A stretch of DNA of 64,000 bases from a virus. Lineage: Duplodnaviria > Heunggongvirae > Uroviricota > Caudoviricetes. The position numbers were made by a program, and so were the translations under genes. Below the pieces are notes generated by a model that was given only the letters and a program-made list of their open reading frames with translations, did no database searches and was not told the DNA's origin. Of this stretch, positions 8,889 to 52,723 are shown piece after piece. Numbering within the stretch: position 1 is the stretch's first letter; each line of letters starts with the position of its first letter. The DNA is taken from positions 33,127-97,126 of IMG/VR virus record IMGVR_UViG_2703718869_000013. The stretch is one strand, 5' to 3'.

Positions 8889-9932
8889 TTAACCTATTGC
8901 TACTGGTTTTAACAAACCAGCATCAAGTAGCTTGCGAGTTAACCACTGCTGGCCTTTACCCGTTAATTGGGGCGTCAGCCGTATCTGGTAGCCATTTTCA
9001 TCATCCAGCACCACTTCTTTCACCGTGAAATACCCGGCGTTAATGTACTGCTGGCGCGGTACGTTTTTGCGCGCACCAAAAGCCATGAGAATGCCGTTCT
9101 GGCGCAACCATGAGAAAAGGGCGTTTTGCTTAAGTCCAACGACCTTTGCAAAGTTCCCGATCAGGATTCCATTAGCCGCTGATACCCGGTCGGCAAAATC
9201 GACTTTAGGGGCTGCGGCCACCAGCTGTTGTTCCAACTGCATTTTCTGTTCTGCCAACTCGGCAGCCAGGCGTAGAGCTTCTGGTAATGTTTGGGGGATC
9301 GATGGGGTAGGGGAGTTTGCCTGCTGCAATTCTTCCAGTTTGTCGATCAGCGAACGGCGGACCGCTTTTGACTCGCGCGCGGCGACTCGCAAGGCTTGTT
9401 TGTAGGTCATGGTGATGACCTCAAAAGAGCGCCCAGCCCTTGTGCCATGGGATTTTGCACTTTTTGTGTAAAATTCACCTTCAAGTTCATCGAGTATTTT
9501 TTCGATGAATTTATTGTTTCTAACCTCTGGTTCTCCACATAACTTGCGTGCCTCATTGACCATCTTCAACAATGTTTGGCTGTCGATTGTGTCTCCGGTG
9601 TTGGGGATGACATTCACGGCTGGTGTTGGCGTAGCTGACGTAACAGGTGCTGGTTTCTCAACATTCAAATTTTTACCGGTCACTCTATGTGCCTCCTTTC
9701 TCATTTCTGCTGCCACCGTTGCGTAACGTAGACGTCCTTGTTCAATCAAATAATCCCTGATCTCGGCTATCAGTAGCCTGTTGATCACAGCCTTATCTGT
9801 TCGGGTATAAAAACGCCTGGTTATCATGAAATAGTTGGCAATTGCGCCGGGGATCTCCCGTGTCGGCATACAGGCAGTATGCAGGGCGATTGCTTCGGCT
9901 ATGTCATTACGGGTGACGAGAGGTTTTTTCAT
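8889..9932 (-). CDS. ant: antirepressor Ant (immI-like module A)
   Basis: 347 aa with a conserved ANT C-terminal domain; start overlaps the stop of a 73-aa icd-like ORF (ATGA), indicating translational coupling. Confidence 0.75.
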   Translation of the reverse strand: MKKPLVTRNDIAEAIALHTACMPTREIPGAIANYFMITRRFYTRTDKAVINRLLIAEIRDYLIEQGRLRYATVAAEMRKEAHRVTGKNLNVEKPAPVTSATPTPAVNVIPNTGDTIDSQTLLKMVNEARKLCGEPEVRNNKFIEKILDELEGEFYTKSAKSHGTRAGRSFEVITMTYKQALRVAARESKAVRRSLIDKLEELQQANSPTPSIPQTLPEALRLAAELAEQKMQLEQQLVAAAPKVDFADRVSAANGILIGNFAKVVGLKQNALFSWLRQNGILMAFGARKNVPRQQYINAGYFTVKEVVLDDENGYQIRLTPQLTGKGQQWLTRKLLDAGLLKPVAIG

Positions 9933-10150
9933 AAAACCCCCTGAACGTCGGCAGAGAAGGGGAGGTTCCAGTAACTAAGTGAATTGCGCGAGTTAGTTGA
10001 AAAACGGGCAGTAAAAATGCAGGGGCCATCAGGCAATTGAGAGCGTGCTTCGTCTTCTGTTGCTGCGATAACGAAGTGATAGTGGTGTTTTTTACAGGAA
10101 TAGAAACGCCAGATGAATTCTTGGCGTGCGCAAGGATTGGCATTAACCAT
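9929..10150 (-). CDS. icd: Icd-like small protein (module A)
   Basis: 73 aa (MVNANPCARQEFIWRF...), conserved in four copies, each directly upstream of and overlapping an ant gene. Confidence 0.6.
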   Translation of the reverse strand: MVNANPCARQEFIWRFYSCKKHHYHFVIAATEDEARSQLPDGPCIFTARFSTNSRNSLSYWNLPFSADVQGVL

Positions 10151-10224
10151 AGTTACGGCCTCACTAACAGGTTTAACAACCTGCTACCCGCTGTCAAACA
10201 GGTGGCAGGACGTGACAGGGTTGA

Positions 10225-10300
10225 CAGACTGGCGTTAGTGAAACCAGCAGGCCGAAGCCTCCCCATCACGCCCCACCATAATTCGGGCGTAACGCGGTTT
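10225..10300 (-). ncRNA. c4: c4-like antisense RNA (module A), approximate ends
   Basis: Conserved core (ggtggggcgtgatggggaggcttcggcctgctggttt on the minus strand) followed by heptamer CACTAAC; complementary GTTAGTG occurs upstream (plus 10345-10351) and at the icd RBS (plus 10162-10168). Confidence 0.55.
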
Positions 10301-10397
10301 ACGGACACAAAAATACCGCAATATCGGAAATCTGCGGTTGTCCGCACTAACATTCAGGCTGTCAAACCTGGTCGCAGAATTTGCTACGACGGCAGAA

Positions 10398-10425
10398 CTA
10401 TAAGCCTGAACGATTAAAAGGTCAA
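10398..10425 (-). promoter_or_regulatory. sigma70-like promoter of module A (TTGACC-N16-TATAGT)
   Basis: Reverse complement gives ttgacc then 16 nt then tatagt; the same element is conserved upstream of modules B and C. Confidence 0.5.
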
Positions 10426-10463
10426 TATGATGCGAAAAGATAGCATTCGCGACTTAAAAATAC

Positions 10464-10480
10464 AAATTTATTAGAGCATT
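10464..10480. promoter_or_regulatory. C1-operator-like site between module A and the sim locus
   Basis: aaatttattagagcatt, 16 of 17 match to the operator consensus; adjacent palindrome tttgtgcaataaatgcacaaa. Confidence 0.55.
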
Positions 10481-10576
10481 ATTTGTGCAATAAATGCACA
10501 AATGGATCTAATAACCTCTTTTTTTTAAAGGCGAAAATATGTACCCTAAATGGGTTATAAGGCAGGTGAGATTATA

Positions 10577-10708
10577 ATGAGAAGACTATTACTACCGTTA
10601 TTATTTATGGCCGGGACTGTTAATGCAGCATCAAGCGTAAAGGAGATTTGTACCGATTATACGAAATACCTTGGGCACGTTTACGCCTTTGCGATCAATG
10701 ACTATTAA
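10577..10708 (+). CDS. small secreted-type ORF, simA-like
   Basis: 43 codons (MRRLLLPLLFMAGTVNAASS...) with a signal-peptide-like N-terminus; below the ORF-track size cutoff, read by eye. Confidence 0.3.
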   Translation: MRRLLLPLLFMAGTVNAASSVKEICTDYTKYLGHVYAFAINDY

Positions 10709-10729
10709 TCCATGCGTAGGAGTGGATTT

Positions 10730-11047
10730 ATGCTGATTCGTTTGTTTTTAGTGCTTTCCTTTTTAACATTTAATGTTTTTGCTGATGAAGTTGACTTTTC
10801 GAAGGTAGATTGCAATTCAGTGGAAACAAGAAAAGCTCTTATTGAAGAATATAACGAAATATTATCGTCATATGGAATAACAGTGGTTGATTCTTATAAT
10901 CAAAAAACTATTCAGAAAGGAATAAATAAACTGGTTTGTTATGGGGTTTACCAATATTCAGATGGCTCTTCGGAGTATGTTATTTATAAAGCATACCCAA
11001 ATAGTCTTGGTGAATTGATTAGTGAGTTTAAACCGATTAATGAGTGA
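10730..11047 (+). CDS. secreted small protein, simB-like
   Basis: ATG at 10730 preceded by AGGAG (10718-10722); signal-peptide-like N-terminus (MLIRLFLVLSFLTFNVFA); AT-rich. The listed ORF starts at 10712. Confidence 0.45.
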   Translation: MLIRLFLVLSFLTFNVFADEVDFSKVDCNSVETRKALIEEYNEILSSYGITVVDSYNQKTIQKGINKLVCYGVYQYSDGSSEYVIYKAYPNSLGELISEFKPINE

Positions 11048-11054
11048 ATGGAAA

Positions 11055-11834
11055 ATGAAATTATTTAATGTAATAACATTTTGTTGTGCTATTTTTGCTG
11101 GAAGCGCGATAGCTGATAATAAATTGCCAGATTGGCTTTCTACTTCAAAAAAAGATTATGATTTAGTAAGGGTGTTCTATTTGTCTGGATTTGCCTCGAA
11201 AGCAATGAATAATCAATTTGGTTATCATTTTCCATCTGAGTTGGTTAATGATTTTAAAGATAATGAATTTGCCGCTCAGGAAAAATGGAATACAATTTCA
11301 ATTGTATATGGTGAAATAAAATCCATAAGAATGGTGAATAATGAACCAATTGTAGAGTTATTTACTCCAGGGGAAAATGCAACGCCACTAAATTATATCA
11401 AATTGAAAGTGTTGGATTCAAAACAAAACTCTCTGTTAAAACTAAAAAAAGGGGATGATATATATGCAGTGTGCTCCGGTGCTAATTTTAGGTTAGTGCC
11501 AATTCTGAGCAACTGCACTCCAGCAACTGACGTCATTGATGCTGCACTCTCTTTTTCTGGTGAATATATGTTCCCTGCTTTTGATTCTTTTTCACCTACT
11601 AAGCAAAACGTCAAATATATATTCACAAATCAAGATCCTGTTCAGATGATGAATTTTATAGGGTACCTATCCTTAGTCGATACAACGAAGGATAAGAATA
11701 AAATGGATATGGTTCGTAAGTGTACGCCTTGGAAGCCGGAATGTTCACAACAATTCGTTGATGTAATGGAAGGATTTGATAACATCATGTATAAATATGA
11801 GAGGGAATTTAAAAATTACATAGAATTAAAATAG
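11055..11834 (+). CDS. sim: exported protein, Sim/SimC-like superinfection exclusion candidate
   Basis: Signal peptide MKLFNVITFCCAIFAGSAIA; about 260 aa; lies next to a c4-icd-ant module as sim does in P1. Alternative starts at 11022 (GTG) and 11040. Confidence 0.45.
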   Translation: MKLFNVITFCCAIFAGSAIADNKLPDWLSTSKKDYDLVRVFYLSGFASKAMNNQFGYHFPSELVNDFKDNEFAAQEKWNTISIVYGEIKSIRMVNNEPIVELFTPGENATPLNYIKLKVLDSKQNSLLKLKKGDDIYAVCSGANFRLVPILSNCTPATDVIDAALSFSGEYMFPAFDSFSPTKQNVKYIFTNQDPVQMMNFIGYLSLVDTTKDKNKMDMVRKCTPWKPECSQQFVDVMEGFDNIMYKYEREFKNYIELK

Positions 11835-11866
11835 TATTTGAAATGATAGTCAATTTAAGTTTTAAC

Positions 11867-11894
11867 AAAACGCCCATTAAAGGGCGTTTTATTG
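11867..11894 (+). terminator. rho-independent terminator after the sim-like operon
   Basis: aaacgccc atta aagggcgttt followed by a T-rich run. Confidence 0.6.
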
Positions 11895-12057: not shown

Positions 12058-12648
<591 letters not shown>

Positions 12649-12658
12649 GGGGGCTGAT

Positions 12659-23576: not shown

Positions 23577-24154
23577 TGACATTCAGAATGAGTGAACAAT
23601 CACGGACCATAAAAATTTATAATCTACTGGCTGGAACCAATGAGTTTATTGGTGAAGGTGATGCATACATTCCACCTCATACAGGTCTGCCTGCAAACAG
23701 TACCGATATTGCCCCGCCAGATATTCCGGCTGGCTTCGTGGCCGTTTTCAACAGTGATGAGGCATCGTGGAATCTCGTTGAAGACCATCGGGGAAAAACC
23801 GTCTATGACGTGGCTTCCGGCGACGCGTTATTTATTTCTGAACTTGGCCCATTACCGGAAAATGTCACCTGGTTATCCCCGGAAGGGGAGTTTCAGAAGT
23901 GGAACGGCACAGCCTGGGTGAAAGATGCAGAAGCAGAAAAACTGTTCCGGATCCGGAAGGCGGAAGAAACAAAAAACAGCCTGATGCAGATGGCCAGTGA
24001 GCATATTGCGCCACTTCAGGATGCCGTAGATTTGGATATTGCGACGGAGGAAGAGGCATCGTTACTGACTGCATGGAAGACATATCGGGTATTGTTGAAT
24101 CGTGTTGATACAACAGTAGCATCGGATGTTGAGTGGCCAGTCGCCCCGCAATAA
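23576..24154 (+). CDS. tfa: tail fibre assembly protein (lambda Tfa-like)
   Basis: 192 aa, [44 protein letters not shown]..., near-identical over most of its length to lambda Tfa as I recall it. Confidence 0.85.
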
Positions 24155-36738: not shown

Positions 36739-36871
36739 AATGTATATCTTTGAAACGTAGCTAACAAGTGATTTGCATTATCCTGTGCCTTCTAAAGGGA
36801 TCGAGTCAGTCGGTATTGGCTGTGAATGGGTGTTTGTCCTGGAGCGTAAAAAATTCGCTTATGAGGTCTTT

Positions 36872-37429
36872 ATGAAGGGAAAAACAGCCGCAGGAGGCGG
36901 TGCAATTTGCGCTATCGCGATGATGATTACCATCGTGATGGATAATGGCAATGTGCGAACCAACCAGGCGGGGCTTGAGCTTATCGGAAACGCTGAAGGT
37001 TGCCGACGTGATCCATACAAGTGCCCGGCGGGTGTATGGACCGACGGGATCGGTAATACACACGGGGTAACGCCTGGCGTGCGAAAAACCGACCAGCAAA
37101 TCGCCGCTGATTGGGAAAAGAATATCCTGATCGCTGAACGCTGTATTAACCAGCACTTCCGGGGCAAAGACATGCCCGATAATGCCTTCAGCGCAATGAC
37201 AAGCGCGGCATTCAATATGGGATGCAATAGTTTACGGACCTACTACAGCAAAGCGCGAGGCATGCGAGTCGAAACGTCCATCCACAAGTGGGCGCAGAAA
37301 GGGGAATGGGTGAATATGTGTAACCATCTCCCTGATTTTGTGAACAGTAACGGCGTCCCCCTGCCCGGGTTAAAGATTCGCCGTGAAGAAGAACGCCAGC
37401 TTTGCCTGACGGGGCTTGTCAATGAATAA
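36872..37429 (+). CDS. lyz: SAR endolysin (P1 Lyz-like, T4-lysozyme family)
   Basis: 185 aa from MKGKTAAGGGAICAIAMMITIV (signal-anchor-release N-terminus) with catalytic E...CRRD...T triad region ELIGNAEGCRRDPYKCPAGVWTDGIGNT; the listed ORF starts earlier at 36773. Confidence 0.9.
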   Translation: MKGKTAAGGGAICAIAMMITIVMDNGNVRTNQAGLELIGNAEGCRRDPYKCPAGVWTDGIGNTHGVTPGVRKTDQQIAADWEKNILIAERCINQHFRGKDMPDNAFSAMTSAAFNMGCNSLRTYYSKARGMRVETSIHKWAQKGEWVNMCNHLPDFVNSNGVPLPGLKIRREEERQLCLTGLVNE

Positions 37430-37673
37430 ACTCCGGCAGCTCCGCCGACTTTCGACAATGAAGTTATCGCTGGCGGCGATAGTTTTTGACTCGATTTTCA
37501 TGGCGGTATATGTGCTCAATGAGACGTGGCCACTGGAACCACTATTATATGCCGGGCTTCGGCTGTGCCTGACATTTTTGAGCATGGCTGCAAGATTGAT
37601 GCAGCAGAAAGAAACCGCTTCAGATTGCCCACGTCGCGCGGTGCGCAAATATATGGCACGCAGGCGAAGATGA
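37422..37673 (+). CDS. small membrane protein overlapping the lyz stop (lysis-associated candidate)
   Basis: ATG at 37422 overlaps the lyz stop (ATGAATAA); two hydrophobic segments; basic C-terminus; the listed ORF starts at 37416. Confidence 0.3.
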   Translation: MNKLRQLRRLSTMKLSLAAIVFDSIFMAVYVLNETWPLEPLLYAGLRLCLTFLSMAARLMQQKETASDCPRRAVRKYMARRRR

Positions 37674-37683
37674 TTTAACCATT

Positions 37684-37717
37684 ATTGCTCTAATAAATTT
37701 GATTTATTAGAGCAAAT
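37684..37717. promoter_or_regulatory. paired inverted C1-operator-like sites upstream of module B
   Basis: ATTGCTCTAATAAATTT (perfect consensus, 37684-37700) followed by inverted atttattagagcaaat (37702-37717). Confidence 0.7.
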
Positions 37718-37741
37718 AACCTACCATCGAACACGGCTCTA

Positions 37742-37770
37742 TTGATCTCATCGTCGTTCAGGCTTATAGT
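37742..37770 (+). promoter_or_regulatory. sigma70-like promoter of module B (TTGATC-N17-TATAGT)
   Basis: ttgatc 37742-37747, tatagt 37765-37770. Confidence 0.5.
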
Positions 37771-37869
37771 TCCACCGTCGTAGCAAATTCTGCGACCAGG
37801 TTTGACAGCCTGAATACTTGTGCGGACAACCGCAGATTTCCGATATTGCGGTATTTTTGTGTCCGTAAA

Positions 37870-37950
37870 ACCGCGTTACGCCCGAATTATGGTGGGGCGT
37901 GATGGGGAGGCTTCGGCCTGCTGGTTTCACAAGTGCCAGTCTGTCAACCC
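37870..37950 (+). ncRNA. c4: c4-like antisense RNA (module B), approximate ends
   Basis: Core ggtggggcgtgatggggaggcttcggcctgctggtttca followed by a' CACAAGT (37928-37934) and b' CTGTCA; complementary ACTTGTG at 37816-37822 and 38000-38006, and TGACAG upstream and downstream. Confidence 0.6.
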
Positions 37951-38017
37951 TGTCACGTCCTGCCACCTGTTTGACAGCGGGTAGCAGGTTGTTAATTCAA
38001 CTTGTGAGGCCGTAACT

Positions 38018-38239
38018 ATGGTTAATGCCAATCCTTGCGCACGCCAAGAATTCATCTGGCGTTTCTATTCCTGTAAAAAACACCACTATCACTTCGTTAT
38101 CGCAGCAACTGAAGACGAAGCACGCTCTCAATTGCCTGATGGCCCCTGCATTTTTACTGCCCGTTTTTCAACTAACTCGCGCAATTCACTTAGTTACTGG
38201 AGCCTCCCCTTCTCTGCCGACGTTCAGGGGGGTTTATGA
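38018..38239 (+). CDS. icd: Icd-like small protein (module B)
   Basis: 73 aa, stop overlaps the ant start; RBS overlapped by the ACTTGTG target heptamer. Confidence 0.6.
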   Translation: MVNANPCARQEFIWRFYSCKKHHYHFVIAATEDEARSQLPDGPCIFTARFSTNSRNSLSYWSLPFSADVQGGL

Positions 38240-39279
38240 AAAAACCTCTCGTCACCCGTAATGACATAGCCGAAGCGATCGCCCTGCATACTGCCTGTAT
38301 GCCGACACGGGAGATCCCCGGCGCAATTGCCAACTATTTCATGATAACCAGGCGTTTTTATACCCGAACAGATAAGGCTGTGATCAACAGGCTACTGATA
38401 GCCGAGATCAGGGATTATTTGATTGAACAAGGACGTCTACGTTACGCAACGGTGGCAGCAGAAATGAGAAAGGAGGCACATAGAATGACCAGTAATAATT
38501 TGAATGTTAAAAAACCAGCATCTGTTGCTTCAGCTACGCCATCACCAGCTGTGAATGTTATCTCCAACACTGGAGATACAATCGACAGCCAGACGCTGTT
38601 AAAGATGGTTAATGAGGCGCGCAAGCTATGTGGGGAAAATGAGATCCGCAATAACGATTTTCTCAATAGAATTAAGGATGAACTTGATGGGGAATTTTAC
38701 GAAACTTTCGTAAAATCCCATGGCACAAGGGCCGGGCGCTCTTTTGAGGTCATAACCATGACCTACAAACAAGCCCTGCGAGTCGCCGCGCGCGAGTCAA
38801 AAGCGGTCCGCCGTTCGCTGATCGACAAACTGGAAGAATTGCAGCAGGCAAACTCCCCTACCCCATCGATCCCCCAAACATTACCAGAAGCCCTACGTCT
38901 GGCTGCCGAGTTAGCAGAACAGAAAATGCAGTTGGAACAACAGCTGGTGGCCGCAGCCCCTAAAGTCGATTTTGCTGACCGGGTATCAGCGGCTAATGGA
39001 ATCCTGATCGGGAACTTTGCAAAGGTCGTTGGACTTAAGCAAAACGCCCTTTTCTCATGGTTGCGCCAGAACGGCATTCTCATGGCTTTTGGTGCGCGCA
39101 AAAACGTACCGCGCCAGCAATACATCAACGCCGGGTATTTCACGGTGAAAGAAGTGGTGCTGGATGATGAAGATGGTTACCAGATACGGCTGACGCCCCA
39201 ATTAACGGGTAAAGGCCAGCAGTGGTTGACGCGTAAACTGCTCGATGCAGGTTTATTAAAGCCTGTAGCGGCTGAGTGA
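38236..39279 (+). CDS. ant: antirepressor Ant (module B)
   Basis: 347 aa, about 90 percent identical to the module A Ant by eye; conserved ANT C-terminal domain. Confidence 0.75.
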   Translation: MKKPLVTRNDIAEAIALHTACMPTREIPGAIANYFMITRRFYTRTDKAVINRLLIAEIRDYLIEQGRLRYATVAAEMRKEAHRMTSNNLNVKKPASVASATPSPAVNVISNTGDTIDSQTLLKMVNEARKLCGENEIRNNDFLNRIKDELDGEFYETFVKSHGTRAGRSFEVITMTYKQALRVAARESKAVRRSLIDKLEELQQANSPTPSIPQTLPEALRLAAELAEQKMQLEQQLVAAAPKVDFADRVSAANGILIGNFAKVVGLKQNALFSWLRQNGILMAFGARKNVPRQQYINAGYFTVKEVVLDDEDGYQIRLTPQLTGKGQQWLTRKLLDAGLLKPVAAE

Positions 39280-39309
39280 TTAAATTAAAAAGGCGGCCTT
39301 TCGGCCGCC
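39280..39309. terminator. bidirectional hairpin terminator between ant B and pro
   Basis: ggcggcc tttc ggccgcc preceded by an A/T run; the same element follows ant C at 46975-47000. Confidence 0.5.
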
Positions 39310-39354
39310 AGTGATTTCAGATACCCCGGCAGCCGCCGGGGTTATTTTTGGTGG

Positions 39355-42085
<2,731 letters not shown>

Positions 42086-43661: not shown

Positions 43662-44351
43662 ATGGAAGTTATCTACATTGCAGAACCAATCATTTCTACG
43701 AGCACGAACAAGTTGATTGCAGTAGAAGTGTTAAGCAGATTTCGCTCCAAAGATGGTGTCGCTCTTCCTACTCAAAGAGTATTGGGTATGTTTACCAATA
43801 AGATGAAGATTAATTTACTTAAATCACAACTTAACACAATAATGAAATACAAGTGTTTTTTTGAACGCCATAATATACTATGTTCTATTAATGTAGATTA
43901 TGATACATGTATATATATATACAGTAATAAACAAACTCAAGAGTTAATTAAAAACAATAAATTTATAGCTCTTGAGATATCAGAAAACTACCCTGATTTA
44001 AGCGATGAGGATTACGTTATACCCTTTCTCCTGACTTTGACAGACTATGTTTGGCTTGATGATTTTGGAAGTGGCAACACCACCATGAAAACATTAATTA
44101 AAAATAAATACCATGCAATAAAACTTGATAAGGCCTTTTTCCAAGAATATGGGACTAATCCTCATTTTGATGTCATTATTAGTAATTTAAAAAAATTATG
44201 CCCGAATATCATCGCTGAAGGTGTTGAAAACATTGAGTGTCATAAGCTATCAAAAGGGATAGGGCTATGGGGTGCCCAGGGATATTTTTTTCCATCAATT
44301 CCTCTGGTGGAGATTGAGTCCATAGATAGTAAGTGGCTATCAGATTTATGA
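43662..44351 (+). CDS. stand-alone EAL-domain c-di-GMP phosphodiesterase (PdeH/YhjH-like)
   Basis: 229 aa with conserved EAL catalytic motifs: EVL, EISE, DDFGSGNTT, KLDK, EGVE, QGY; architecture and length like E. coli PdeH. Confidence 0.8.
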   Translation: MEVIYIAEPIISTSTNKLIAVEVLSRFRSKDGVALPTQRVLGMFTNKMKINLLKSQLNTIMKYKCFFERHNILCSINVDYDTCIYIYSNKQTQELIKNNKFIALEISENYPDLSDEDYVIPFLLTLTDYVWLDDFGSGNTTMKTLIKNKYHAIKLDKAFFQEYGTNPHFDVIISNLKKLCPNIIAEGVENIECHKLSKGIGLWGAQGYFFPSIPLVEIESIDSKWLSDL

Positions 44352-44404
44352 GATGCAGAGAGTTAGGATATTGATATGAACGTCTAAGCACCTCATTACC
44401 ATGC

Positions 44405-45049
44405 TTAAAAGATGTTATCCTTACCTGTTAATTTACCTTGAGGAACTTTAGCGAGCTCCATCCGATAAAATGCTCTTATCATATTTACAAATGGTTCATA
44501 TGGTGAATATCTGTTGTCTTGTTCAGTAATGGTGTTTGTCATTGTCCTGATGAAGTCTGCGCTTGCCACGTTGTTGTATTCCGTTGCGAAGCAGCATAAC
44601 AACGTCAGAACGTGCTCTGTCGTTATTTCGCTCCAGTTGATGTTGAAAAACTCATCGCCTTTTTTATCGTGTTCGGAATCGAAGATGCTTTGGTGGAGGA
44701 TGTATTTGCCGGATTCCTTGCGCGGTAACTTGATTGCTTTCTGGCGTTCCAGCTCCTTATAAATCTGCATTGCCTCAATTAGTACCGGCCTGCCGTTCAT
44801 GAAGGGATCGCGCAACCTTACACGCTGGCCAACTCGACCAGTAATAAAGCTGTTTTCCTCTTCCACCAGCACGATAAAACCCTTCTCCTCTTTTTCTCGC
44901 AATTCGCGCAGCAGCTGGAGTTCCATATCGCGGCGGCGTTCAGGGTAGCTGGTCCGCTCAGCCATTATCAGCTCGTTATTGATCCATGCAGCAGTCATTG
45001 ACGCCGGTTTGCCGACGCTCATCGAAACAACGCATATTTTCTTATCCAT
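44405..45049 (-). CDS. hypothetical protein
   Basis: 214 aa from ATG at 45049 preceded by GGGGGAG; the listed ORF extends to 45196; no family recognised. Confidence 0.45.
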   Translation of the reverse strand: MDKKICVVSMSVGKPASMTAAWINNELIMAERTSYPERRRDMELQLLRELREKEEKGFIVLVEEENSFITGRVGQRVRLRDPFMNGRPVLIEAMQIYKELERQKAIKLPRKESGKYILHQSIFDSEHDKKGDEFFNINWSEITTEHVLTLLCCFATEYNNVASADFIRTMTNTITEQDNRYSPYEPFVNMIRAFYRMELAKVPQGKLTGKDNIF

Positions 45050-45309
45050 AGCTCCCCCTACAAAAAAGAAAAGCCACCAGCGGCGGCTTAGCAATACAAC
45101 TGAAGGTAGCGCCCGGTACTCAGACTGTGCCGTCCATGGAATATTTGAAAAGGGATCCATCCGTACCGGGCGTGTGATGATTTTGACTGAAGTCACTTGT
45201 CAGTTGTCAATTATTTATTATTAAAAATAATATATTTATTAGTGCATACAAATAATACACTAAGTGTGCACATTGCAACCTCAGAGAGGAAACATTCAAC
45301 CAGATTGTT

Positions 45310-45326
45310 ATTGCTCTAATAAATTT
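45310..45326. promoter_or_regulatory. C1-operator-like site upstream of module C
   Basis: ATTGCTCTAATAAATTT, perfect match to the consensus, followed by a degenerate inverted copy. Confidence 0.7.
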
Positions 45327-45496
45327 GATTTATTGGGGCAAATAAACTACTATTGGACGCCAGACTATTGATCTTCCTGTTGTTCAGGCTTATAGTTCCT
45401 ACGCCGTAGCAAATTCTGCGACCGGGTTTAGCAGCCTGAATGTACATGCGGACAACCGCAGATTTCCGATATTGCGGTATTTTTATGTCCGTAAAA

Positions 45497-45577
45497 CCGC
45501 GTTACGCCCGAATTATGGTGGGGCGTGATGGGGAGGCTTCGGCCTGCTGGTTTCATGTACGCCAGTCTGCTAACCCC
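45497..45577 (+). ncRNA. c4: c4-like antisense RNA (module C), approximate ends
   Basis: Same core as module B; a' CATGTAC (45554-45560) with targets GTACATG at 45442-45448 and 45626-45632; b elements TAGCAG / CTGCTA instead of TGACAG / CTGTCA. Confidence 0.6.
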
Positions 45578-45643
45578 GTCACGTCCTGCCACCCGTTTAG
45601 CAGCGGGTAGCAGGTTGTTAAACCTGTACATGAGGCCGTAACT

Positions 45644-45865
45644 ATGGTTAATGCCAATCCTTGCGCACGCCCTGAATTTATCTGGCGCTTTTACTCCTGC
45701 CAGAAACGCCACTATCACTTCGTTATTGCACCGACAGAAGATGAGGCACGTTCTCAGCTTCCGGATGCTCCCTGCATTTTCTCCGCACGCTTTTCTACTG
45801 ACTCGCGCAATTCTCTCAGTTACTGGTGCCTCCCTGTTAACGCTTCTGTTCAGGAGGGGCTATGA
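45644..45865 (+). CDS. icd: Icd-like small protein (module C)
   Basis: 73 aa paralog; stop overlaps the ant start. Confidence 0.6.
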   Translation: MVNANPCARPEFIWRFYSCQKRHYHFVIAPTEDEARSQLPDAPCIFSARFSTDSRNSLSYWCLPVNASVQEGL

Positions 45866-46974
45866 GAACGTCATTAGTCACCCGTGAAGAGATGATCGAG
45901 GCAATTGAACAGCACACAATCTGTATCAGCACCAGGGATATACCAGGCGTTATTGCCAACTACTTCATGATCACCAAACAACTTTACCGGAGAAAGGACA
46001 AGAACGCGGTTCACCGTATCCTGTTGTCTGATATCCGCGAATACCTGCTCGAACAGGGTCATCTGAATTACGCAACCGTCGCAGCCGAAGCACGCAAGGA
46101 GGCACACAGAATGAAAGCAACTAACGTTAAATCAGAAAAAATTTATGCACCTTCAGTTCAGGAATCGGAACTGGTGGTTGTTCAGAATCAGCCGGATGAA
46201 ATTCCCGTTCTGGAATGGCAGGGAGTACGTGTCGTAACAACCGAAACTCTTGCTAGAGGGTATGGGGTCGATGAAGCCAATATTCGCAACAATTTGTCTC
46301 GCAACCTTGACCGCTTTGAAGAAGGTAAGCATTACTTTCTTCTAACTGGTTTAAAATTAAGAGAATTTAAGAACAGAGTAACCGGAAGTTACTCTGTTGG
46401 TAAGAACGCCAGAAGCCTTACACTCTGGACAGAGCGCGGCGCTGCACGCATGTCTAAGATCGTGGACACAAATGAAGCATGGGCATTCTTTGAAAAACTG
46501 GAAGACAGCTACTTCCGGCAAAAAGAACAGCAACCGGTCGCAATCCCTCAGACGCTTCCCGAAGCTCTGCGCCTGGCTGCCGAGCTGGCTGAACAAAAGC
46601 AACTTCTGGAACAGAAAGCCCACCAGCTAAATCAGCAGCTGGTGGCCGCCGCCCCTAAAGTCGATTTTGCCGACCGGGTATCAGGGGCCAAGGGGATCCT
46701 GATTGGAAATTTTGCAAAGGTTGTTGGGCTTAAGCAAAACGCGTTGTTTGCCTGGTTACGGGGGAACGGCATCCTGATAGCGTCCGGTGGACGTAAAAAT
46801 GTGCCGTTCCAGCAATACATCAACGCCGGGTATTTCACGGTGAAAGAAGTGGTGCTGGATGATGAAGATGGTTACCAGATACGGCTGACGCCCCAATTAA
46901 CGGGTAAAGGCCAGCAGTGGTTGACGCGTAAACTGCTCGAAGCTGGCTTGTTAAAACCGGTGGCGGCTGAATGA
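45862..46974 (+). CDS. ant: antirepressor Ant, type 2 (module C)
   Basis: 370 aa; different central domain from modules A/B (AntA/ORF6N-like, PVLEWQGVRVVTTETLARGYG) plus the shared ANT C-terminus. Confidence 0.75.
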   Translation: MRTSLVTREEMIEAIEQHTICISTRDIPGVIANYFMITKQLYRRKDKNAVHRILLSDIREYLLEQGHLNYATVAAEARKEAHRMKATNVKSEKIYAPSVQESELVVVQNQPDEIPVLEWQGVRVVTTETLARGYGVDEANIRNNLSRNLDRFEEGKHYFLLTGLKLREFKNRVTGSYSVGKNARSLTLWTERGAARMSKIVDTNEAWAFFEKLEDSYFRQKEQQPVAIPQTLPEALRLAAELAEQKQLLEQKAHQLNQQLVAAAPKVDFADRVSGAKGILIGNFAKVVGLKQNALFAWLRGNGILIASGGRKNVPFQQYINAGYFTVKEVVLDDEDGYQIRLTPQLTGKGQQWLTRKLLEAGLLKPVAAE

Positions 46975-47213
46975 TTAAAAAAGGCGGCCTTTCGGCCGCC
47001 AATGATGTCACGGAGTCTATAATGGCAATGTCTTCGTAGTTGACTAAAGCCACAACTCAATTATAACAATTAATTATAGCAATAGTGGCTATTTTATTTA
47101 TCGCGAATCACATTTTTTCTCTTCAGTACATGTGTGCTATACTCCTTCTTGATTGATTGGATGCGGAATACAAACCCGCTCTTTTGTGCAGCCTGGCTCC
47201 TTGCCAGGCTTTT

Positions 47214-47525
47214 TTATTTCATCATGGAAGCTGTTAACGCTTTGGACCTTGCTGAACTGATTGAGAGGGCTTTGTCAACGTGCCCCAAAAATTCGCCAAA
47301 CTCAGACATCACTTTAGCAAAACCGCGCCGTGCTTCTTCCTCGGTGGCGTTCATCACGAAATGTTCAGCACCACGCATACTTTTGACAGGGAACGCAACG
47401 GATATTGAGTCAATATCAGGCATTCTATCGCTCAGCTTTACAGTGACAATGACGGCTGGCGACTGAATATTAGTGCTTACAGACAGCACTACATATTTTC
47501 CGTCGATGTTGAAATCCTTTCTCAT
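47214..47525 (-). CDS. hypothetical protein downstream of cre
   Basis: 103 aa with good coding character; the overlapping + strand ORF 47134-47466 is judged spurious. Confidence 0.45.
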   Translation of the reverse strand: MRKDFNIDGKYVVLSVSTNIQSPAVIVTVKLSDRMPDIDSISVAFPVKSMRGAEHFVMNATEEEARRGFAKVMSEFGEFLGHVDKALSISSARSKALTASMMK

Positions 47526-47575
47526 ATGTCACCATAAATATCAAAGAATTAGAGCAATCATTTACGCGTTGATGG

Positions 47576-48607
47576 CTAATCGCCATCTTCCAGCAGGCGC
47601 ACCATTGCCCCTGTTTCACTATCCAGGTTACGAATGTAGTTCATGACAATATTTACGTTGGTCCAGCCACCAGCTTGCATGATCTCCGGTATTGAAACTC
47701 CGGCGCGGGCCATATCTCGCGCGGCACCGACACGGGCACTATGTCCAGACCAGGCCAGGTATCGCTGACCAGAGTCATCTTTTGCCCCGTAAATCAATCG
47801 GTGAGTTGCTTCAAAAATCCCTTCCAGGGCGCGAGTTGATAGCTGGCTGGTGGATGATGGCGCGGCAACACCATTTTTTCTGACGCGGCAAAACAGGTAG
47901 TTATTCGGATCATCAGCTACACCAGAGACAGAAATCCATCGCTCAACCAGTTTAGTTACCCCCAGGCTAAGTGCCTTCTCTACACCAGCGGTGCTAACCA
48001 GCGTTTTCGTTCTGCCAATATGGATTAACATTCTCCCACCGTCAGTACGTGAGATATCTTTAACCCTGATCCTAGAAATTTCGGCTATACGTAACAGGGT
48101 GTTATAAGCAATCCCCAGAAATGCCAGATTACGTATATCCTGGCAGCGATCGCTATTTTCCATGAGTGAACGAACCTGGTCGAAATCAGTGCGTTCGAAC
48201 GCCAGCGCCTGTTTTGCACGCTCACCGGCATCAACGTTTTCTTTTCGGATCCGTCGCATGACCAGTGAAACAGCATTGCTGTCACTTGGTCGTGGCAGCC
48301 CGGACCGACGATGAAGCATGTTTAGCTGGCCCAAATGTTGCTGGATAGTTTTTACTGCCAGACCACGCGCCTGAAGATATAGAAGGTAATCGCGAACATC
48401 TTCAGGTTCTGCGGGAAACCATTTCCGGTTATTCAACATGCACCATGCCGCCCACGACCGGCAAACGGACAGAAGCATTTTCCAGGTATGATCAGAAAAC
48501 GCCTGGCGATCCCTGAACATGTCCATCAGGTTCTTGCGAACCTCATCACTCGTTGCATCGACCGGCAATGCAGGCAAATTTTGGTGAACGGTTAACGAAT
48601 TAGTCAT
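47576..48607 (-). CDS. cre: Cre site-specific tyrosine recombinase
   Basis: 343 aa; matches P1 Cre along its whole length with a few substitutions as far as I can recall (for example N-terminus MTNSL versus MSNLL); loxP lies 820 bp upstream. Confidence 0.97.
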   Translation of the reverse strand: MTNSLTVHQNLPALPVDATSDEVRKNLMDMFRDRQAFSDHTWKMLLSVCRSWAAWCMLNNRKWFPAEPEDVRDYLLYLQARGLAVKTIQQHLGQLNMLHRRSGLPRPSDSNAVSLVMRRIRKENVDAGERAKQALAFERTDFDQVRSLMENSDRCQDIRNLAFLGIAYNTLLRIAEISRIRVKDISRTDGGRMLIHIGRTKTLVSTAGVEKALSLGVTKLVERWISVSGVADDPNNYLFCRVRKNGVAAPSSTSQLSTRALEGIFEATHRLIYGAKDDSGQRYLAWSGHSARVGAARDMARAGVSIPEIMQAGGWTNVNIVMNYIRNLDSETGAMVRLLEDGD

Positions 48608-48999
48608 TTATTATGCGTGATTTTAACAGTTAAGCCTTGTTCATGAAGTATCTCATCAATAATTCGAATCACATCCCCTGGTAGATCATCGTTCTCGAAA
48701 TATCTGTGATCGGGGATTTCTACAGTGATTGGGGTTGCTGCTTTATGCAAAATCCGAACAATCTTTTTTTCTTTTTTGCATGTTGCATATTCAGCCTCTT
48801 CGATATCTATCCAGCTCGCACCATCAAATTGCTGGTAAACCCGAGTGTATAGTAAGCGGTTTCGCTTTACTTCTTCTGCTAACTCCCAAATTGCAACAGC
48901 CATAGCACGTTCATTTTCATTCGTTCCAGGGTTAGCAGCTTTTTGTTTTGCGTCGTTCAGTAAGGCGTTTACCTTGGCATCTGTCAGGCCATTAAACAT
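48604..48999 (-). CDS. cra: cre-associated upstream protein (Cra-like)
   Basis: 131 aa; stop overlaps the cre start; positioned between loxP and cre. Confidence 0.45.
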   Translation of the reverse strand: MFNGLTDAKVNALLNDAKQKAANPGTNENERAMAVAIWELAEEVKRNRLLYTRVYQQFDGASWIDIEEAEYATCKKEKKIVRILHKAATPITVEIPDHRYFENDDLPGDVIRIIDEILHEQGLTVKITHNK

Positions 49000-49018
49000 T
49001 CATCACCTCATGATCAAG

Positions 49019-49240
49019 TTAAATTATTGTTTTCAGCAGAGTGTACAGGATTGGCTCTGCCTTTACCTGGTTATGGTTCTCGTCATAGAAACGCCAGCGA
49101 CCGCGCGTGCGTTCTATTTTCTCTTCACCGCGAGATAATGACTGTTGGTAACTATCACGCTCAAACCATTTTGCCCGCCAGTAACCACGGTTTTTCTCAA
49201 GCTCAAGATGAGTGGACACTTTAGCAGCTGAATATCCCAT
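49019..49240 (-). CDS. hypothetical small protein between loxP and cra
   Basis: 73 aa ORF; may instead be regulatory leader of the cre operon. Confidence 0.25.
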   Translation of the reverse strand: MGYSAAKVSTHLELEKNRGYWRAKWFERDSYQQSLSRGEEKIERTRGRWRFYDENHNQVKAEPILYTLLKTII

Positions 49241-49337
49241 TTTTCACCTCTGATTGATTGGTGGTGCTAAGTGCGCTACGCGAAATCTGGAGCACTAACA
49301 CTGCCAACATTTCGCAGATTTTACGTAGCGCAACCTT

Positions 49338-49357
49338 GATCAAATGATCAAGTGATC
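49338..49357. promoter_or_regulatory. cluster of three Dam GATC sites in the cre upstream region
   Basis: ttgatcaaatgatcaagtgatcac: GATC at 49338, 49346 and 49354. Confidence 0.6.
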
Positions 49358-49429
49358 ACTATTTGACCTGATAAGGTATTGAACTGTATGGATTTACAGG
49401 TAAATTAATCATGTTCAATAACCCTTAAG

Positions 49430-49463
49430 ATAACTTCGTATAATGTATGCTATACGAAGTTAT
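49430..49463. other. loxP: loxP recombination site
   Basis: Exact 34-bp site ATAACTTCGTATA-ATGTATGC-TATACGAAGTTAT (13-bp inverted repeats, 8-bp spacer). Confidence 0.98.
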
Positions 49464-49506
49464 TAGGTCCGAAGAGGAGTTTACGTCCAGCTACGCATAA
49501 AAATCA

Positions 49507-49523
49507 AGAATTATTAGAGCAAT
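49507..49523. promoter_or_regulatory. C1-operator-like site (Op99-type) upstream of coi/c1
   Basis: agaattattagagcaat, 15 of 17 match to the operator consensus. Confidence 0.5.
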
Positions 49524-49583
49524 AAATTTTGAGAGAAAAATCCCACTCCACCAGCCAAAAACTGGATTGTTTTTCATAGTTGT

Positions 49584-49610
49584 TTGACAATTGCTCTAAT
49601 AAATTATAGT
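49584..49610 (+). promoter_or_regulatory. promoter TTGACA-N15-TATAGT overlapped by a C1-operator-like site (49590-49606)
   Basis: ttgaca 49584-49589, tatagt 49605-49610, with ATTGCTCTAATAAATTa embedded; classic repressor-over-promoter arrangement directing transcription toward coi and c1. Confidence 0.6.
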
Positions 49611-49844
49611 TTTGCCGCCGTTACGTAATACGACTTTGGATTCACTATTTAATGTGTCTTCAGCGTTGTAGAGCGGCTCAGAAGGAAATGAGCAAACAGG
49701 GAAACCTTATACAACGGCATTACAGCTATGCATTGCTCATCTTACACACAGCGCAATGTTGTTAGATTACCCCAGCATGGATCATGGGTGAAACAGTAGG
49801 TCAGAGCTTCAGGCTCTGTGTTGTCAATACAGTGAGGCATAATT

Positions 49845-50054
49845 ATGGCTTTCATTCAACCAACCATCGACGACGTTAGACATTGCTCTAACGCTTTATC
49901 TGTAGACCCTGCCGAAACCGACGCTGCCCGCGCCATTGCTGAACACTACTCAAAGATATCCAATCAGGAGTACCGCATCACCCAAGACGACCTGGATGAT
50001 CTCACTGACACAATCGAATATCTCATGGCCACTAACCAGCCAGACTCACAATAA
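49845..50054 (+). CDS. coi: Coi-like C1 inactivator
   Basis: 69 aa acidic protein immediately upstream of the c1-like gene, as in the P1 immC region. Confidence 0.55.
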   Translation: MAFIQPTIDDVRHCSNALSVDPAETDAARAIAEHYSKISNQEYRITQDDLDDLTDTIEYLMATNQPDSQ

Positions 50055-50164
50055 ATGCACTAATAAATCTATTATTTTCGTTGGATCCTTCTATAATGGT
50101 GGCCAACAACTCCCAGTGTAATCCGCTGTGAGTTGTTGGCCATGTCAATTCTGGAGGAGGATCA

Positions 50165-51016
50165 ATGATAAATTATGTCTACGGCGAACAACTGTACCAG
50201 GAGTTCGTCAGCTTCAGGGATCTCTTTCTAAAAAAAGCTGTTGCACGCGCCCAACACGTTGATGCCGCCAGCGACGGTCGTCCTGTACGCCCGGTTGTCG
50301 TTCTGCCGTTCAAAGAAACGGACAGCATTCAGGCTGAAATTGATAAATGGACTTTAATGGCGCGGGAACTGGAACAGTACCCAGACCTCAATATCCCAAA
50401 GACTATTTTATATCCAGTGCCTAACATCCTTCGCGGTGTGCGTAAGGTTACAACTTATCAGACAGAAGCTGTGAACAGCGTCAACATGACCGCTGGCCGC
50501 ATTATTCATCTGATTGATAAGGACATTCGCATCCAGAAAAGCGCGGGGATCAATGAGCACAGTGCGAAATACATAGAGAACCTGGAAGCAACAAAAGAGC
50601 TAATGAAGCAGTACCCGGAGGATGAAAAATTCCGTATGCGTGTACACGGCTTTAGCGAAACAATGCTGCGCGTCCATTACATTTCCAGTAGCCCTAACTA
50701 CAATGATGGTAAATCAGTTAGTTACCATGTGCCGCTGTGTGGTGTGTTTATCTGCGATGAAACTCTCCGTGATGGAATCATCATCAACGGTGAATTCGAG
50801 AAAGCAAAATTTAGCCTTTATGACTCTATAGAACCGATCATCTGCGACCGCTGGCCGCAGGCAAAAATATATCGCCTGGCAGATATTGAAAATGTAAAAA
50901 AACAAATTGCCATCACTCGCGAAGAGAAAAAGGTTAAGTCAGCCGCATCAGTTGCGCGCAGCCGTAAAACCAAGAAGGGGCAGCCAGTAAACGACAACCC
51001 CGAAAGCGCGCAATAA
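50165..51016 (+). CDS. c1: C1-like primary repressor of lysogeny
   Basis: 283 aa, P1 C1 size; strong RBS GGAGGAGG; many matches to the C1 operator consensus across the window. Confidence 0.75.
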   Translation: MINYVYGEQLYQEFVSFRDLFLKKAVARAQHVDAASDGRPVRPVVVLPFKETDSIQAEIDKWTLMARELEQYPDLNIPKTILYPVPNILRGVRKVTTYQTEAVNSVNMTAGRIIHLIDKDIRIQKSAGINEHSAKYIENLEATKELMKQYPEDEKFRMRVHGFSETMLRVHYISSSPNYNDGKSVSYHVPLCGVFICDETLRDGIIINGEFEKAKFSLYDSIEPIICDRWPQAKIYRLADIENVKKQIAITREEKKVKSAASVARSRKTKKGQPVNDNPESAQ

Positions 51017-51018
51017 AT

Positions 51019-51041
51019 TATGCCCGGCATCAACCGGGCAT
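51019..51041. terminator. bidirectional hairpin terminator between c1 and ant D
   Basis: atgcccgg catcaa ccgggcat between convergent genes. Confidence 0.5.
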
Positions 51042-51048
51042 TCTTCCA

Positions 51049-52167
51049 TTATTCAGCCGCCACCGGTTTTAACAAGCCAGCATCGAGCAGTTTACGCGTC
51101 AACCACTGCTGGCCTTTACCCGTTAATTGAGGCGTCAACCGTATCTGGTAGCCATCTTCATCATCCAGCACCACTTCTTTCACCGTGAAATACCCGGCGT
51201 TGATGTACTGCTGGAACGGCACATTTTTACGTCCACCGGACGCTATCAGGATGCCGTTCTCCCGTAACCAGACAAACAGCGCGTTTTGCTTAAGTCCAAC
51301 AACCTTTGCAAAATTCCCAATCAGGATCCCTTTAGCTACTGATACCCGGTCGGCAAAATCGACTTTAGGAGCGGCGGCCACCAGCTGCTGATTTAGCTGG
51401 TGGGCTTTCTGTTCCAGAAGTTGCTTTTGTTCAGCCAGTTCGGCAGCCAGGCGTAGGACTTCAGGAAGCGTCTGGGGGATTGCGATCGGTTGCTGTTCTT
51501 TTTGTCGGAAGTAGCTGTCTTCCAGTTTTTCAAAGAATGCCCATGCCTGATCGGTTTCGAGCATTTTAGCGTGGCGGGCTGCGCCGCGTTCTGTCCAGAG
51601 GGTGAGTGAGCGAACATTGCGAGCAATTTTTACAGAGTAGTTTAAAGCTACTCTGTGCTTCAACTCGCGCAATGATTCTCCTTCAACTTTGAAAAAGTGC
51701 TTCCCTTCAACAAAGCGTACTTTGTTCTCATGATGATTTTGGCGAATACGGATTGTTTCTGTCCCATACCCTCTCGCAAGAGTCTCGGTTGTCACTACAC
51801 GCACTCCCTGCCATTCCAGAACGGGAATTTCATCAGACTGATTCTGAACAACCACCAGCTCCGATTCCTGAACTGAAGGTGCATGAATTTTTTCTAATTT
51901 AACGTTATTTGCTTTCATTCTGTGTGCCTCCTTGCGTGCTTCGGCTGCGACGGTTGCGTAATTCAGATGACCCTGTTCGAGCAGGTATTCGCGGATATCA
52001 GACAACAGGATACGGTGAACCGCGTTCTTGTCCTTTCTCCGGTAAAGTTGTTTGGTGATCATGAAGTAGTTGGCAATAACGCCAGGTATATCCCTGGTGC
52101 TGATACAGATTGTGTGCTGTTCAATTGCCTCGATCATCTCTTCACGGGTGACTAATGACGTTCTCAT
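51049..52167 (-). CDS. ant: antirepressor Ant, type 2 (module D)
   Basis: 372 aa, close paralog of the module C Ant. Confidence 0.75.
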   Translation of the reverse strand: MRTSLVTREEMIEAIEQHTICISTRDIPGVIANYFMITKQLYRRKDKNAVHRILLSDIREYLLEQGHLNYATVAAEARKEAHRMKANNVKLEKIHAPSVQESELVVVQNQSDEIPVLEWQGVRVVTTETLARGYGTETIRIRQNHHENKVRFVEGKHFFKVEGESLRELKHRVALNYSVKIARNVRSLTLWTERGAARHAKMLETDQAWAFFEKLEDSYFRQKEQQPIAIPQTLPEVLRLAAELAEQKQLLEQKAHQLNQQLVAAAPKVDFADRVSVAKGILIGNFAKVVGLKQNALFVWLRENGILIASGGRKNVPFQQYINAGYFTVKEVVLDDEDGYQIRLTPQLTGKGQQWLTRKLLDAGLLKPVAAE

Positions 52168-52385
52168 AGTCCCTCCTGAGCAGAAGCGTTAACAGGGAGG
52201 CACCAGTAACTGAGAGAATTGCGTGAATCAGTGGAAAAACGGGCAGAGAAAATACATGGGGCGTCAGGAAGCTGAGAGCGAGCCTCATCTTCTGTTGGTG
52301 CAATAACGAAGTGATAGTGACGTTTTTGGCAGGAGTAAAAGCGCCAGATAAATTCAGGATGAGTTGGGGTAGGGATAGTAGCCAT
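52164..52385 (-). CDS. icd: Icd-like small protein (module D)
   Basis: 73 aa from MATIPTPTHPEFIWRF...; RBS AAGGAGG; the listed 187-aa ORF (to 52727) is an upstream read-through artefact. Confidence 0.55.
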   Translation of the reverse strand: MATIPTPTHPEFIWRFYSCQKRHYHFVIAPTEDEARSQLPDAPCIFSARFSTDSRNSLSYWCLPVNASAQEGL

Positions 52386-52469
52386 ATTGGCAGCCTCCTT
52401 AGACGTTGGTATGTAACCACCGCAGAAGAGACCAATCTTGCTGGCGGTGGACTGTACGGAGTTGGCCTT

Positions 52470-52530
52470 ACTGGCGTCCAAGGTAACCAGCCTACCCGAA
52501 GGTAGCCCCATACAGCCCACCATTGTAGAG
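52470..52530 (-). ncRNA. c4: divergent c4-like antisense RNA (module D), approximate ends
   Basis: Minus-strand core ggtgggctgtatggggctaccttcgggtaggctggtta; loop CTTGGACG can pair with CGTCTAAG at the icd RBS (one G-U wobble); GTCTAAG also upstream (plus 52581-52587). Confidence 0.45.
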
Positions 52531-52703
52531 GTGTGCGTGTACGCCGATACAAAAAAAGACGCGAGCGGCGTCTGTATCGCCTTAGACTTAAGCGGGAGGC
52601 CAATCCCGGCACCCGTTTTAATGAGGTGCCTGATAAGCATAAACCGAAAATGCCTCAAGGCGCAAGAGGTCAGGCTCAATGTAACATCGGTAGTTAAAAA
52701 ACA

Positions 52704-52720
52704 CAATTTATTAGAGCAAA
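52704..52720. promoter_or_regulatory. C1-operator-like site upstream of module D
   Basis: caatttattagagcaaa, 15 of 17 match to the operator consensus. Confidence 0.55.
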
Positions 52721-52723
52721 TAT

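Follow-up and report, generated by a model that had tools for sequence, protein, structure and literature searches.

The stretch of DNA analysed here, a window of 64,000 nt (positions 33,127 to 97,126 of IMG/VR record IMGVR_UViG_2703718869_000013; coordinates are those of the window unless another record is named), is that of a P1-like phage-plasmid. Its open reading frames (ORFs) include cre, c1, pacB, kilA and lyz, and local BLAST against P1 (NC_005856) gave collinear blocks of 90–98% identity. An earlier note, made from the sequence alone, had described four complete copies of the immunity locus immI (c4 antisense RNA, icd and the antirepressor gene ant) in this stretch, and all four were found where it had placed them, on the same strands, by means of Rfam C4 matches, C1 operators, and icd and ant ORFs. 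Reading the anatomy with the P1 record's own annotation as a guide, we found one order of parts common to modules A–D: a C1 operator, a promoter (in D a weak candidate), an a1/b1 leader, c4, the targets a2 and b2, icd, ant and a G+C-rich hairpin. On the strength of these parts, we conclude that the element carries four P1-type immI cassettes, all intact and apparently autonomous.

Module A, the canonical immI (8889..10480, minus strand), is syntenic with P1 45620–51220 (97.4% identity). Its operator lies at 10464–10480 and its promoter (TTGACC-17-TATAGT) at 10397–10425. The leader sites a1 (10359–10365) and b1 (10345–10351) are followed by c4 (10198–10283, –), with a' at 10221–10227 and b' (CACTAAC) at 10234–10240, and then by a2 (10191–10197), b2 (10162–10168), icd (9929–10150) and ant (8889–9932). 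The module B cassette (37670..39322, plus strand) has its operator at 37684–37700, an inverted half-site at 37700–37716 and its promoter (TTGATC-17-TATAGT) at 37742–37770. Beyond these lie a1 (37802–37808), b1 (37816–37822), c4 (37885–37970, +; b' CACAAGT at 37928–37934, a' at 37941–37947), a2 (37971–37977), b2 (38000–38006), icd (38018–38239), ant (38236–39279) and the hairpin (39292–39309).

The module C cassette (45248..46976, plus strand) is laid out in the same way, with an operator at 45310–45326, a promoter (TTGATC-17-TATAGT) at 45368–45396, a1 at 45428–45434 and b1 at 45442–45448. Its c4 occupies 45511–45596 (+; b' CATGTAC at 45554–45560, a' CTGCTAA at 45567–45573), and a2 (45597–45603), b2 (45626–45632), icd (45644–45865) and an ant of the ORF6N type (45862–46974) follow; its hairpin (46983–47000) lies in the P1 backbone, just past the cassette end. 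In the module D cassette (51016..52725, minus strand) the operator (52704–52720) precedes an isrK-like leader (52552–52629) that holds a1 (52597–52603), b1 (52580–52587) and a leader terminator hairpin (52557–52573). The remaining parts are c4 (52440–52527, –; b' CCTTGGAC at 52476–52483, a' AGGCCAA at 52462–52468), a2 (52429–52435), b2 (52397–52404), icd (52164–52385), a second ant of the ORF6N type (51049–52167) and the hairpin (51020–51041).

Rfam C4 (RF01695, gathering score 45 bits) gave four matches, one per module, with scores of 68.6–75.9 bits (E = 5e-13 to 3e-11). Tested for being unrelated to c4, the four upstream regions proved to be related to it, with a mean column identity of 81% when aligned. 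One fold is common to the four c4 RNAs, and 8 of its pairs show changes on both sides, D versus the others. Modules A and B also contain matches to the c4-a1b1 family (RF03163), and the leader of module D matches isrK (RF01394; 60.8 bits, gathering score 50).

At the 5' edge of each module stands a match to the C1 operator consensus ATTGCTCTAATAAATTT (1 mismatch in A, 0 in B, 0 in C and 2 in D), and the offset of this predicted site is that of P1's Oc4/Op51 in every case. The whole window contains 13 such matches, compared to 0.39 expected from shuffles. The module B operator (37684–37716) is a near-perfect overlapping inverted pair, ATTGCTCTAATAAATTT with TTTGCTCTAATAAATCA on the opposite strand, and resembles P1's bivalent operators; in module C the second half has degenerated. 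A P51a-like promoter overlapped by the C1 operator is annotated in the P1 record and was read by eye in B and C, and a P51b-like promoter (TTGAC/TC-17-TATAGT) is present at the P1 position in A, B and C. Module D has a weak, hand-read candidate promoter (TTGCGC-18-TATGCT) just upstream of the isrK 5' end. A terminator hairpin after a1/b1 was reported by the scan in the D leader; the A–C leaders contain a similar hairpin and U-run after b1, read by eye and unreported by the scan.

Downstream of c4, b2 abuts or overlaps the icd Shine-Dalgarno sequence (GAGG or AAGGAGG). As the note had it, every copy has the same layout with a 73-aa icd coupled to ant: the icd stop and the ant start overlap by 4 nt (ATGA) in all four modules, and the icd products match phrog_1426. 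An internal Ant2 start at codon 84, with AAGGAGG before it, is kept in all four ant genes.

The c4 RNAs differ in their recognition sequences. The a'/b' pairs are CTGTCAA/CACTAAC in A, CTGTCAA/CACAAGT in B, CTGCTAA/CATGTAC in C and AGGCCAA/CCTTGGAC in D, which makes four different b' loops and three different a' sequences. Compared with P1 and P7 immI, the modules are P1-type units, with A corresponding to the P1 locus: its a' and b' are identical to those of P1 c4. P7 has CTGCTAA/CACAATC, and the differences between P1 and P7, the classic heteroimmune pair, fall at exactly the a'/b' positions that vary here. Within each module the a and b targets occur exactly twice each and a' and b' exactly once each, and in A, B and C the targets are exact complements. 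For the b' loop paired to the leader, calculated duplex energies range from –11.6 to –13.9 kcal/mol for cognate and from –2.1 to –7.8 kcal/mol for non-cognate combinations. For a', cognate and non-cognate energies were not separated, flanking G+C-rich pairings being dominant, and hence only the b' energies were used. Because each module's own targets complement its own c4, the four switches should not cross-regulate. The description of the four antirepressors as separately controlled thus turns out stronger than first claimed, each c4 having its own b' loop matched by its own targets.

Two exact anchors served to collect c4 loci from IMG/VR, and the P1-type set consists of 113 modules with complete flanks. 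In 113 of 113, the module's own a' and b' are exactly complemented at a1, a2, b1 and b2, and the complement of any other allele was found at these target sites in 0 of 113. In this set, 7 b' alleles combine with 2 a' alleles in 12 ways. D-type c4 in IMG/VR has two alleles, again with covarying targets, and the survey total is at least 9 b' alleles, compared to the two classical ones of P1 and P7. These data provide strong comparative evidence that the loop–target pairing is functional and specificity-defining.

Several IMG/VR loci (e.g. L003, L004, L006, L009, L010, L013 and L025) have P1-family a'/b' alleles within flanks unlike those of the window; the same RNA specificities therefore circulate in non-P1 phage backbones. 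In total, 29 P1-type c4 modules were assigned to an 'other' (non-P1-like) context. A tandem pair of D-type c4, ~1.5 kb apart (anchors 999–1019 and 2565–2585) and identical in specificity, is present in IMGVR_UViG_2698536372_000019; no other contig was seen to hold two c4 copies of one type. The c4-like sequence of IMGVR_UViG_3300010935_000281 (anchor 583–602, –) has the first hairpin in common and then diverges (…GGTTTCCGTTATTGATCAGTCGACTAACCCC…), and may be another specificity class or a rearranged copy.

Relative to P1, modules B, C and D are discrete cassettes of 1.65–1.73 kb with clean junctions, each starting within a few bases of the operator and ending at or near the hairpin after ant. 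Module B is a 1653-bp insertion in place of 19 bp of P1 (20066–20084), between lydD/lydE and pro. Module D, an insertion of 1710 bp, lies between the stop codons of pacB and c1, where it has displaced 27 bp of P1. Module C takes the place of P1 ref (P1 2070–2628), in inverted orientation, with the Omat operator kept at ~45231–45248. The P1 Oref operator (47067–47083, 3 mismatches) and the Pref region are kept at 46977–47083, though ref is gone. With Pref kept and cassette C inverted, C1-controlled transcripts starting at Pref would pass the hairpin at 46983–47000 and enter the 3' end of antC in the antisense direction. The hairpin after ant in B (39292–39309) and C (46983–47000), GGCGGCC(N4)GGCCGCC, is also present in P1 NC_005856 between c8 and ref (~2047–2064), and may be a recombination anchor or a trace of the source from which cassette B was copied.

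Plasmid NZ_CP013030.1 has four modules too: three occupy sites A, B and D, the remaining one a fifth site adjoining dnaB (P1 ban), and their b' types (CACAATC, CATTCGT, CCTTGGAC and CATGTAC) are all different. Its site-B cassette has the junctions seen in the window but a different c4 type and Ant type, and hence cassette contents recombine. The cassette adjoining dnaB (NZ_CP013030.1 72380–73900; b' CATGTAC), at a site unused in the window, ends in the same hairpin as cassette D (ATGCCCGG...CCGGGCAT). Across the survey, alleles are not fixed to sites (CACAATC, for example, is found at A, B and C), and the D type is seen only at the pacB/c1 site. We infer that the cassettes are portable operator-to-hairpin units, placed at several backbone sites and reshuffled by recombination.

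The ant ORFs encode proteins of 347 (A), 347 (B), 370 (C) and 372 (D) aa. A Pfam ANT/KilAC domain is present in all four Ants and in KilA, in agreement with the earlier note, which had KilA sharing the Ant C-terminal domain. Its division of the Ants into two types, A/B and C/D, also holds: identity is 93% between AntA and AntB and ~60% between either of them and C or D, and ORF6N is found only in C and D, with KilA-N in KilA. The central domain was said to differ between the types, and it does; yet both central-region types match phrog_1726, and all four Ants belong to phrog_63, so that the two central domains may be distant homologues rather than unrelated. For the central and N-terminal regions of AntA and AntB there was no Pfam match even at E = 10, and PHROGs returned generic antirepressor families only.

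Comparison of the two Ant types gave dN/dS values of 0.08–0.15 for the terminal regions of Ant (N-terminal 85 aa, C-terminal 137 aa) and of 0.07–0.12 for icd; comparisons within a type gave 0.06–0.11 for the C-terminal region. In the between-type comparisons of ant and icd, dS ranges from 0.75 to >2. The antA/antB N-terminus and icdA/icdB are near-identical, with too few changes for an informative dN/dS. The genes contain mosaic segments, dS between antC and antD being 0.018 at the N-terminus and 0.57 in the middle. Ant varies most in its central region, where dN is 0.10 for A/B, 0.21 for C/D and ~0.9–1.0 between types. The low dN/dS, high dS and mosaic segments together indicate that the copies are old, constrained paralogs assembled by recombination. 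Recent duplication in situ was ruled out by dS values of up to ~2.

Such an array had been called unusual, which is true relative to the reference P1 only and not relative to plasmids. In PLSDB, we counted 1141 c4/icd places in 683 records. Among 60 evenly spaced PLSDB records with a c4/icd match, 28 had one copy, 24 had two, 6 had three and 2 had four, so that 32 of the 60 had two or more. Four cassettes are rare (~3%), yet they are the upper tail of a common stacking pattern in which about half of the records carry at least two. The cre/c1 region with cassettes C and D (query 44000–54500) was covered to ≥80% by a single place in 46 plasmid records, and site B was occupied in 11/789 plasmid records and in 15/761 complete E. 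coli genomes with a match. Among the matches listed from the phage collection, copy numbers per record did not exceed two, with one each in P1 and P7. We also considered co-resident P1-type modules (29 pairs, 14 genomes), and found that 0 pairs share both a' and b' and 1 shares b' alone. In a shuffle test of type sharing, P was 0.011 globally and 0.13 within site classes, the co-resident genomes being phylogenetically non-independent. This pattern fits selection for distinct types, though with no significant effect beyond the link between site and allele.

All four modules share their part order, c4 fold and target logic with P1 immI (Oc4/Op51, P51a/P51b, c4, icd, ant1/ant2), and the icd-ant coupling, nested Ant2 start and C1 operator are common to them as well; module A, at 97% identity and with unchanged specificity, is itself the P1 locus. 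P1 and P7 have a single immI each; here there are four, every one at its own backbone site, which between them show four b' and three a' sequences, and two of the Ants have an ORF6N central domain. P22 likewise has, in immI (sar antisense RNA, ant, arc/mnt), a second region for immunity, whose antirepressor is silenced by repressors together with an antisense RNA, and there too the unmatched antirepressor of a superinfecting phage breaks immunity. It differs in that sar is an unrelated, true cis-antisense transcript, with no icd-type coupling ORF known, and in being single-copy.

Module D resembles the Salmonella Gifsy-1 isrK-orf45-anrP locus in that an isrK-type leader with a terminator hairpin precedes a short ORF, to which an antirepressor gene is coupled. 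Unlike in Gifsy-1, a high-scoring C4 RNA and then a 73-aa icd come after the leader, and a P1 C1 operator stands ahead of it, in a P1 backbone. The isrK match in module D coincides with the leader that bears a1 and b1 and has its own terminator; a short IsrK-like RNA would carry both c4-D binding sites. In the Gifsy-1 model, as set out in the accessible part of the source, IsrK is a trans-activator and no c4-type antisense RNA is invoked (PMC4825925). An extra ant between pacB and c1 is on record for RCS47 and pTZ20_1P, and icd-ant homologues near mat for pSvP1 (PMC6906374). These are the same insertions as those described here, and the RCS47 record annotates ant next to c1. In the accessible text on these three plasmids the genes are given as cargo or variable regions, and c4 RNAs, specificities, boundaries and stacking go undescribed (PMC6906374). 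In the literature searched, as far as its accessible text goes, we found extra ant genes in passing mentions only, and no description of c4, matched specificities, cassettes or stacking. The system itself is well known; what is new here is the matched specificities, the family-wide rule, the cassette structure and the stacking.

The nearest database relatives of the element are E. coli and E. albertii plasmids and complete E. coli genomes, at 94–97% identity; no database record was ≥99% identical over most of either window query. The gene for C1, the primary repressor, lies at 50165–51016 (+), in a region 98% identical to P1 93232–94800, which includes c1. C1 is presumed to be the target of the Ants and to bind the four module operators. 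The kilA ORF (7924–8724, –; KilA-N and ANT/KilAC domains) is downstream of module A and is preceded by a further C1 operator (8794–8810). Other landmarks are the ORFs for P1 lysozyme (lyz, 36773–37429, +), Cre (47576–48607, –) and PacB (52724–54208, –). Between cra and cre there is a 412-bp insertion relative to P1 (48611–49022), and the 131-aa ORF that it encodes (48604–48999, –) has a stop that overlaps the cre start; its counterpart in NZ_CP013030.1 (43136–43531) is annotated as hypothetical. A full-length match to Rfam IS009 (192 bits) is located at 23919–24117 (+), and another in NZ_CP013030.1 (L149 16242–16440), inside or adjoining a tail fibre assembly gene.

What might four matched cassettes do? 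The P1/P7 genetics on which our mechanism is modelled was reportedly established by Wandersman and Yarmolinsky in 1977 and by Citron and Schuster in 1990. A summary of this immunity genetics is available (PMC12197685). By analogy, each cassette would give rise to a single transcript made up of the a1/b1 leader, the c4 RNA and an icd-ant message with a2/b2. In a lysogen, each c4 would stop translation of icd, and hence expression of ant, from its own cassette, and would also silence the icd-ant of an incoming phage with the same c4 type. The lysogen would then be immune to P1-like phages with any subset of its four types. Conversely, on infecting a lysogen that lacks even one of the four c4 types, the element would make the unmatched Ant, C1 would be inactivated and immunity would be broken. 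Silencing of any subset, combined with escape through an unmatched Ant, means that stacking would broaden both defence and attack. We consider it probable that the stacked cassettes let the phage resist and overcome the immunity of several related phages in this way; the 'anti-immunity arsenal' of the earlier note is, in these terms, a reasonable inference from P1/P7 biology.

Several points weigh against this interpretation. Binding of C1 by all four Ants is assumed, and the central domains differ between and within types. A and B share a' and differ at only 3 of 7 b' positions, so there may be some cross-talk between them. In module D, the c4–target pairing includes G-U pairs, and the promoter falls under the scan's consensus threshold. 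Finally, the lack of shared specificities among co-resident modules is not significant once the site–allele link is controlled (P = 0.13), and no selection for distinct types is claimed beyond that link.

The variability of the central region also bears on a different idea, namely that the paralogous Ants inactivate different repressors, either C1 variants or those of unrelated co-resident prophages, much as the trans-acting Gifsy antirepressors do. Induction of other prophages by the element, or cross-talk with them, would then be possible, and the orthogonal c4 RNAs would merely keep each Ant silent. The sharp divergence of this region (dN 0.10, 0.21 and ~0.9–1.0) between conserved N- and C-terminal regions would suit such a role, as would the confinement of ORF6N to C and D, the occurrence of P1-type c4 modules outside P1-like backbones (the 29 'other' cases) and the membership of the D leader in the isrK family, described in the Gifsy-1 antirepressor locus (PMC4825925). 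However, all four Ants fall in one PHROG (phrog_63) and both central regions match phrog_1726; the strong conservation of the N-terminal 85 aa and C-terminal 137 aa in all four fits a shared partner; and a C1 operator on all four cassettes ties them to the P1 circuit. We regard different targets as possible, with a distinctly lower probability than the stacking of immunity specificities, with which it is compatible.

The C1 operators would also allow the cassettes to act as induction amplifiers. A drop in C1 would raise the four ant genes together, making induction steeper and more committed, and the c4 types would be an accident of cassette origin. The operator–promoter distance, which in each cassette is that of P1's Oc4/Op51, and the palindromic B operator, like P1's bivalent operators, are consistent with this. 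Nevertheless, amplification leaves unexplained both the perfect covariation of the specificity alleles with all four target sites across the family and the near-absence of shared types among co-resident modules, and identical copies would give the dosage benefit as well. We therefore think it unlikely as the main role.

Selfish stabilisation is less probable still. Here, Icd toxin and c4 RNA antidote would behave like a type I toxin–antitoxin system, punishing plasmid loss and making the cassettes hard to lose. The P1 record annotates Icd as a cell division inhibitor and KilA as able to kill the host, the cassettes are discrete and occupy several insertion sites, and icd is under purifying selection. 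However, c4 and its target come from one transcript, from which c4 is processed as a structured, stable RNA, and its stability relative to that target is the opposite of what holds in hok/sok-type systems; moreover, phd/doc-type and hok/sok-type modules are already present in relatives. A last reading, in which the copies are duplicates in decay or an artefact of assembly and no longer have a function, can be dismissed, given dS up to ~2 with dN/dS of 0.06–0.15, regulatory parts that are all intact, and the recurrence of these insertions, junctions included, in many plasmid and genome records independent of one another.

If stacked cassettes do broaden both immunity and its breakage, a bolder proposal can be made, which we put forward tentatively and rate as less likely than its premise: a combinatorial, RNA-coded immunity with at least nine orthogonal c4/target alleles, portable, stacking and recombining cassettes at five or more sites, a nested hierarchy of elements, and decoy leaders. 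In such a hierarchy, an element whose c4 set contains that of a rival would be immune to the rival and would break the rival's immunity. The a1/b1 leader RNAs, IsrK among them, may serve as decoys that titrate c4, a role that, if true, would recast the published IsrK 'activation' of anrP as anti-antisense (PMC4825925).

Textbook P1 immunity consists of one c1 repressor and one immI. Judging from our data, the reference phage represents the minimum, and natural P1-like phage-plasmids often stack immI cassettes with different RNA specificities. In effect, the allelic series offers synthetic biology a natural collection of short antisense regulators that are orthogonal and whose targets covary perfectly. 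In E. coli, E. albertii and Salmonella, P1-like phage-plasmids are common vehicles of resistance genes. If the logic proposed here is true, c4 type sets would be relevant to plasmid epidemiology and to the use of P1 derivatives as delivery vectors, and the c4 type set of a phage-plasmid would predict which others it can coexist with, exclude or induce.

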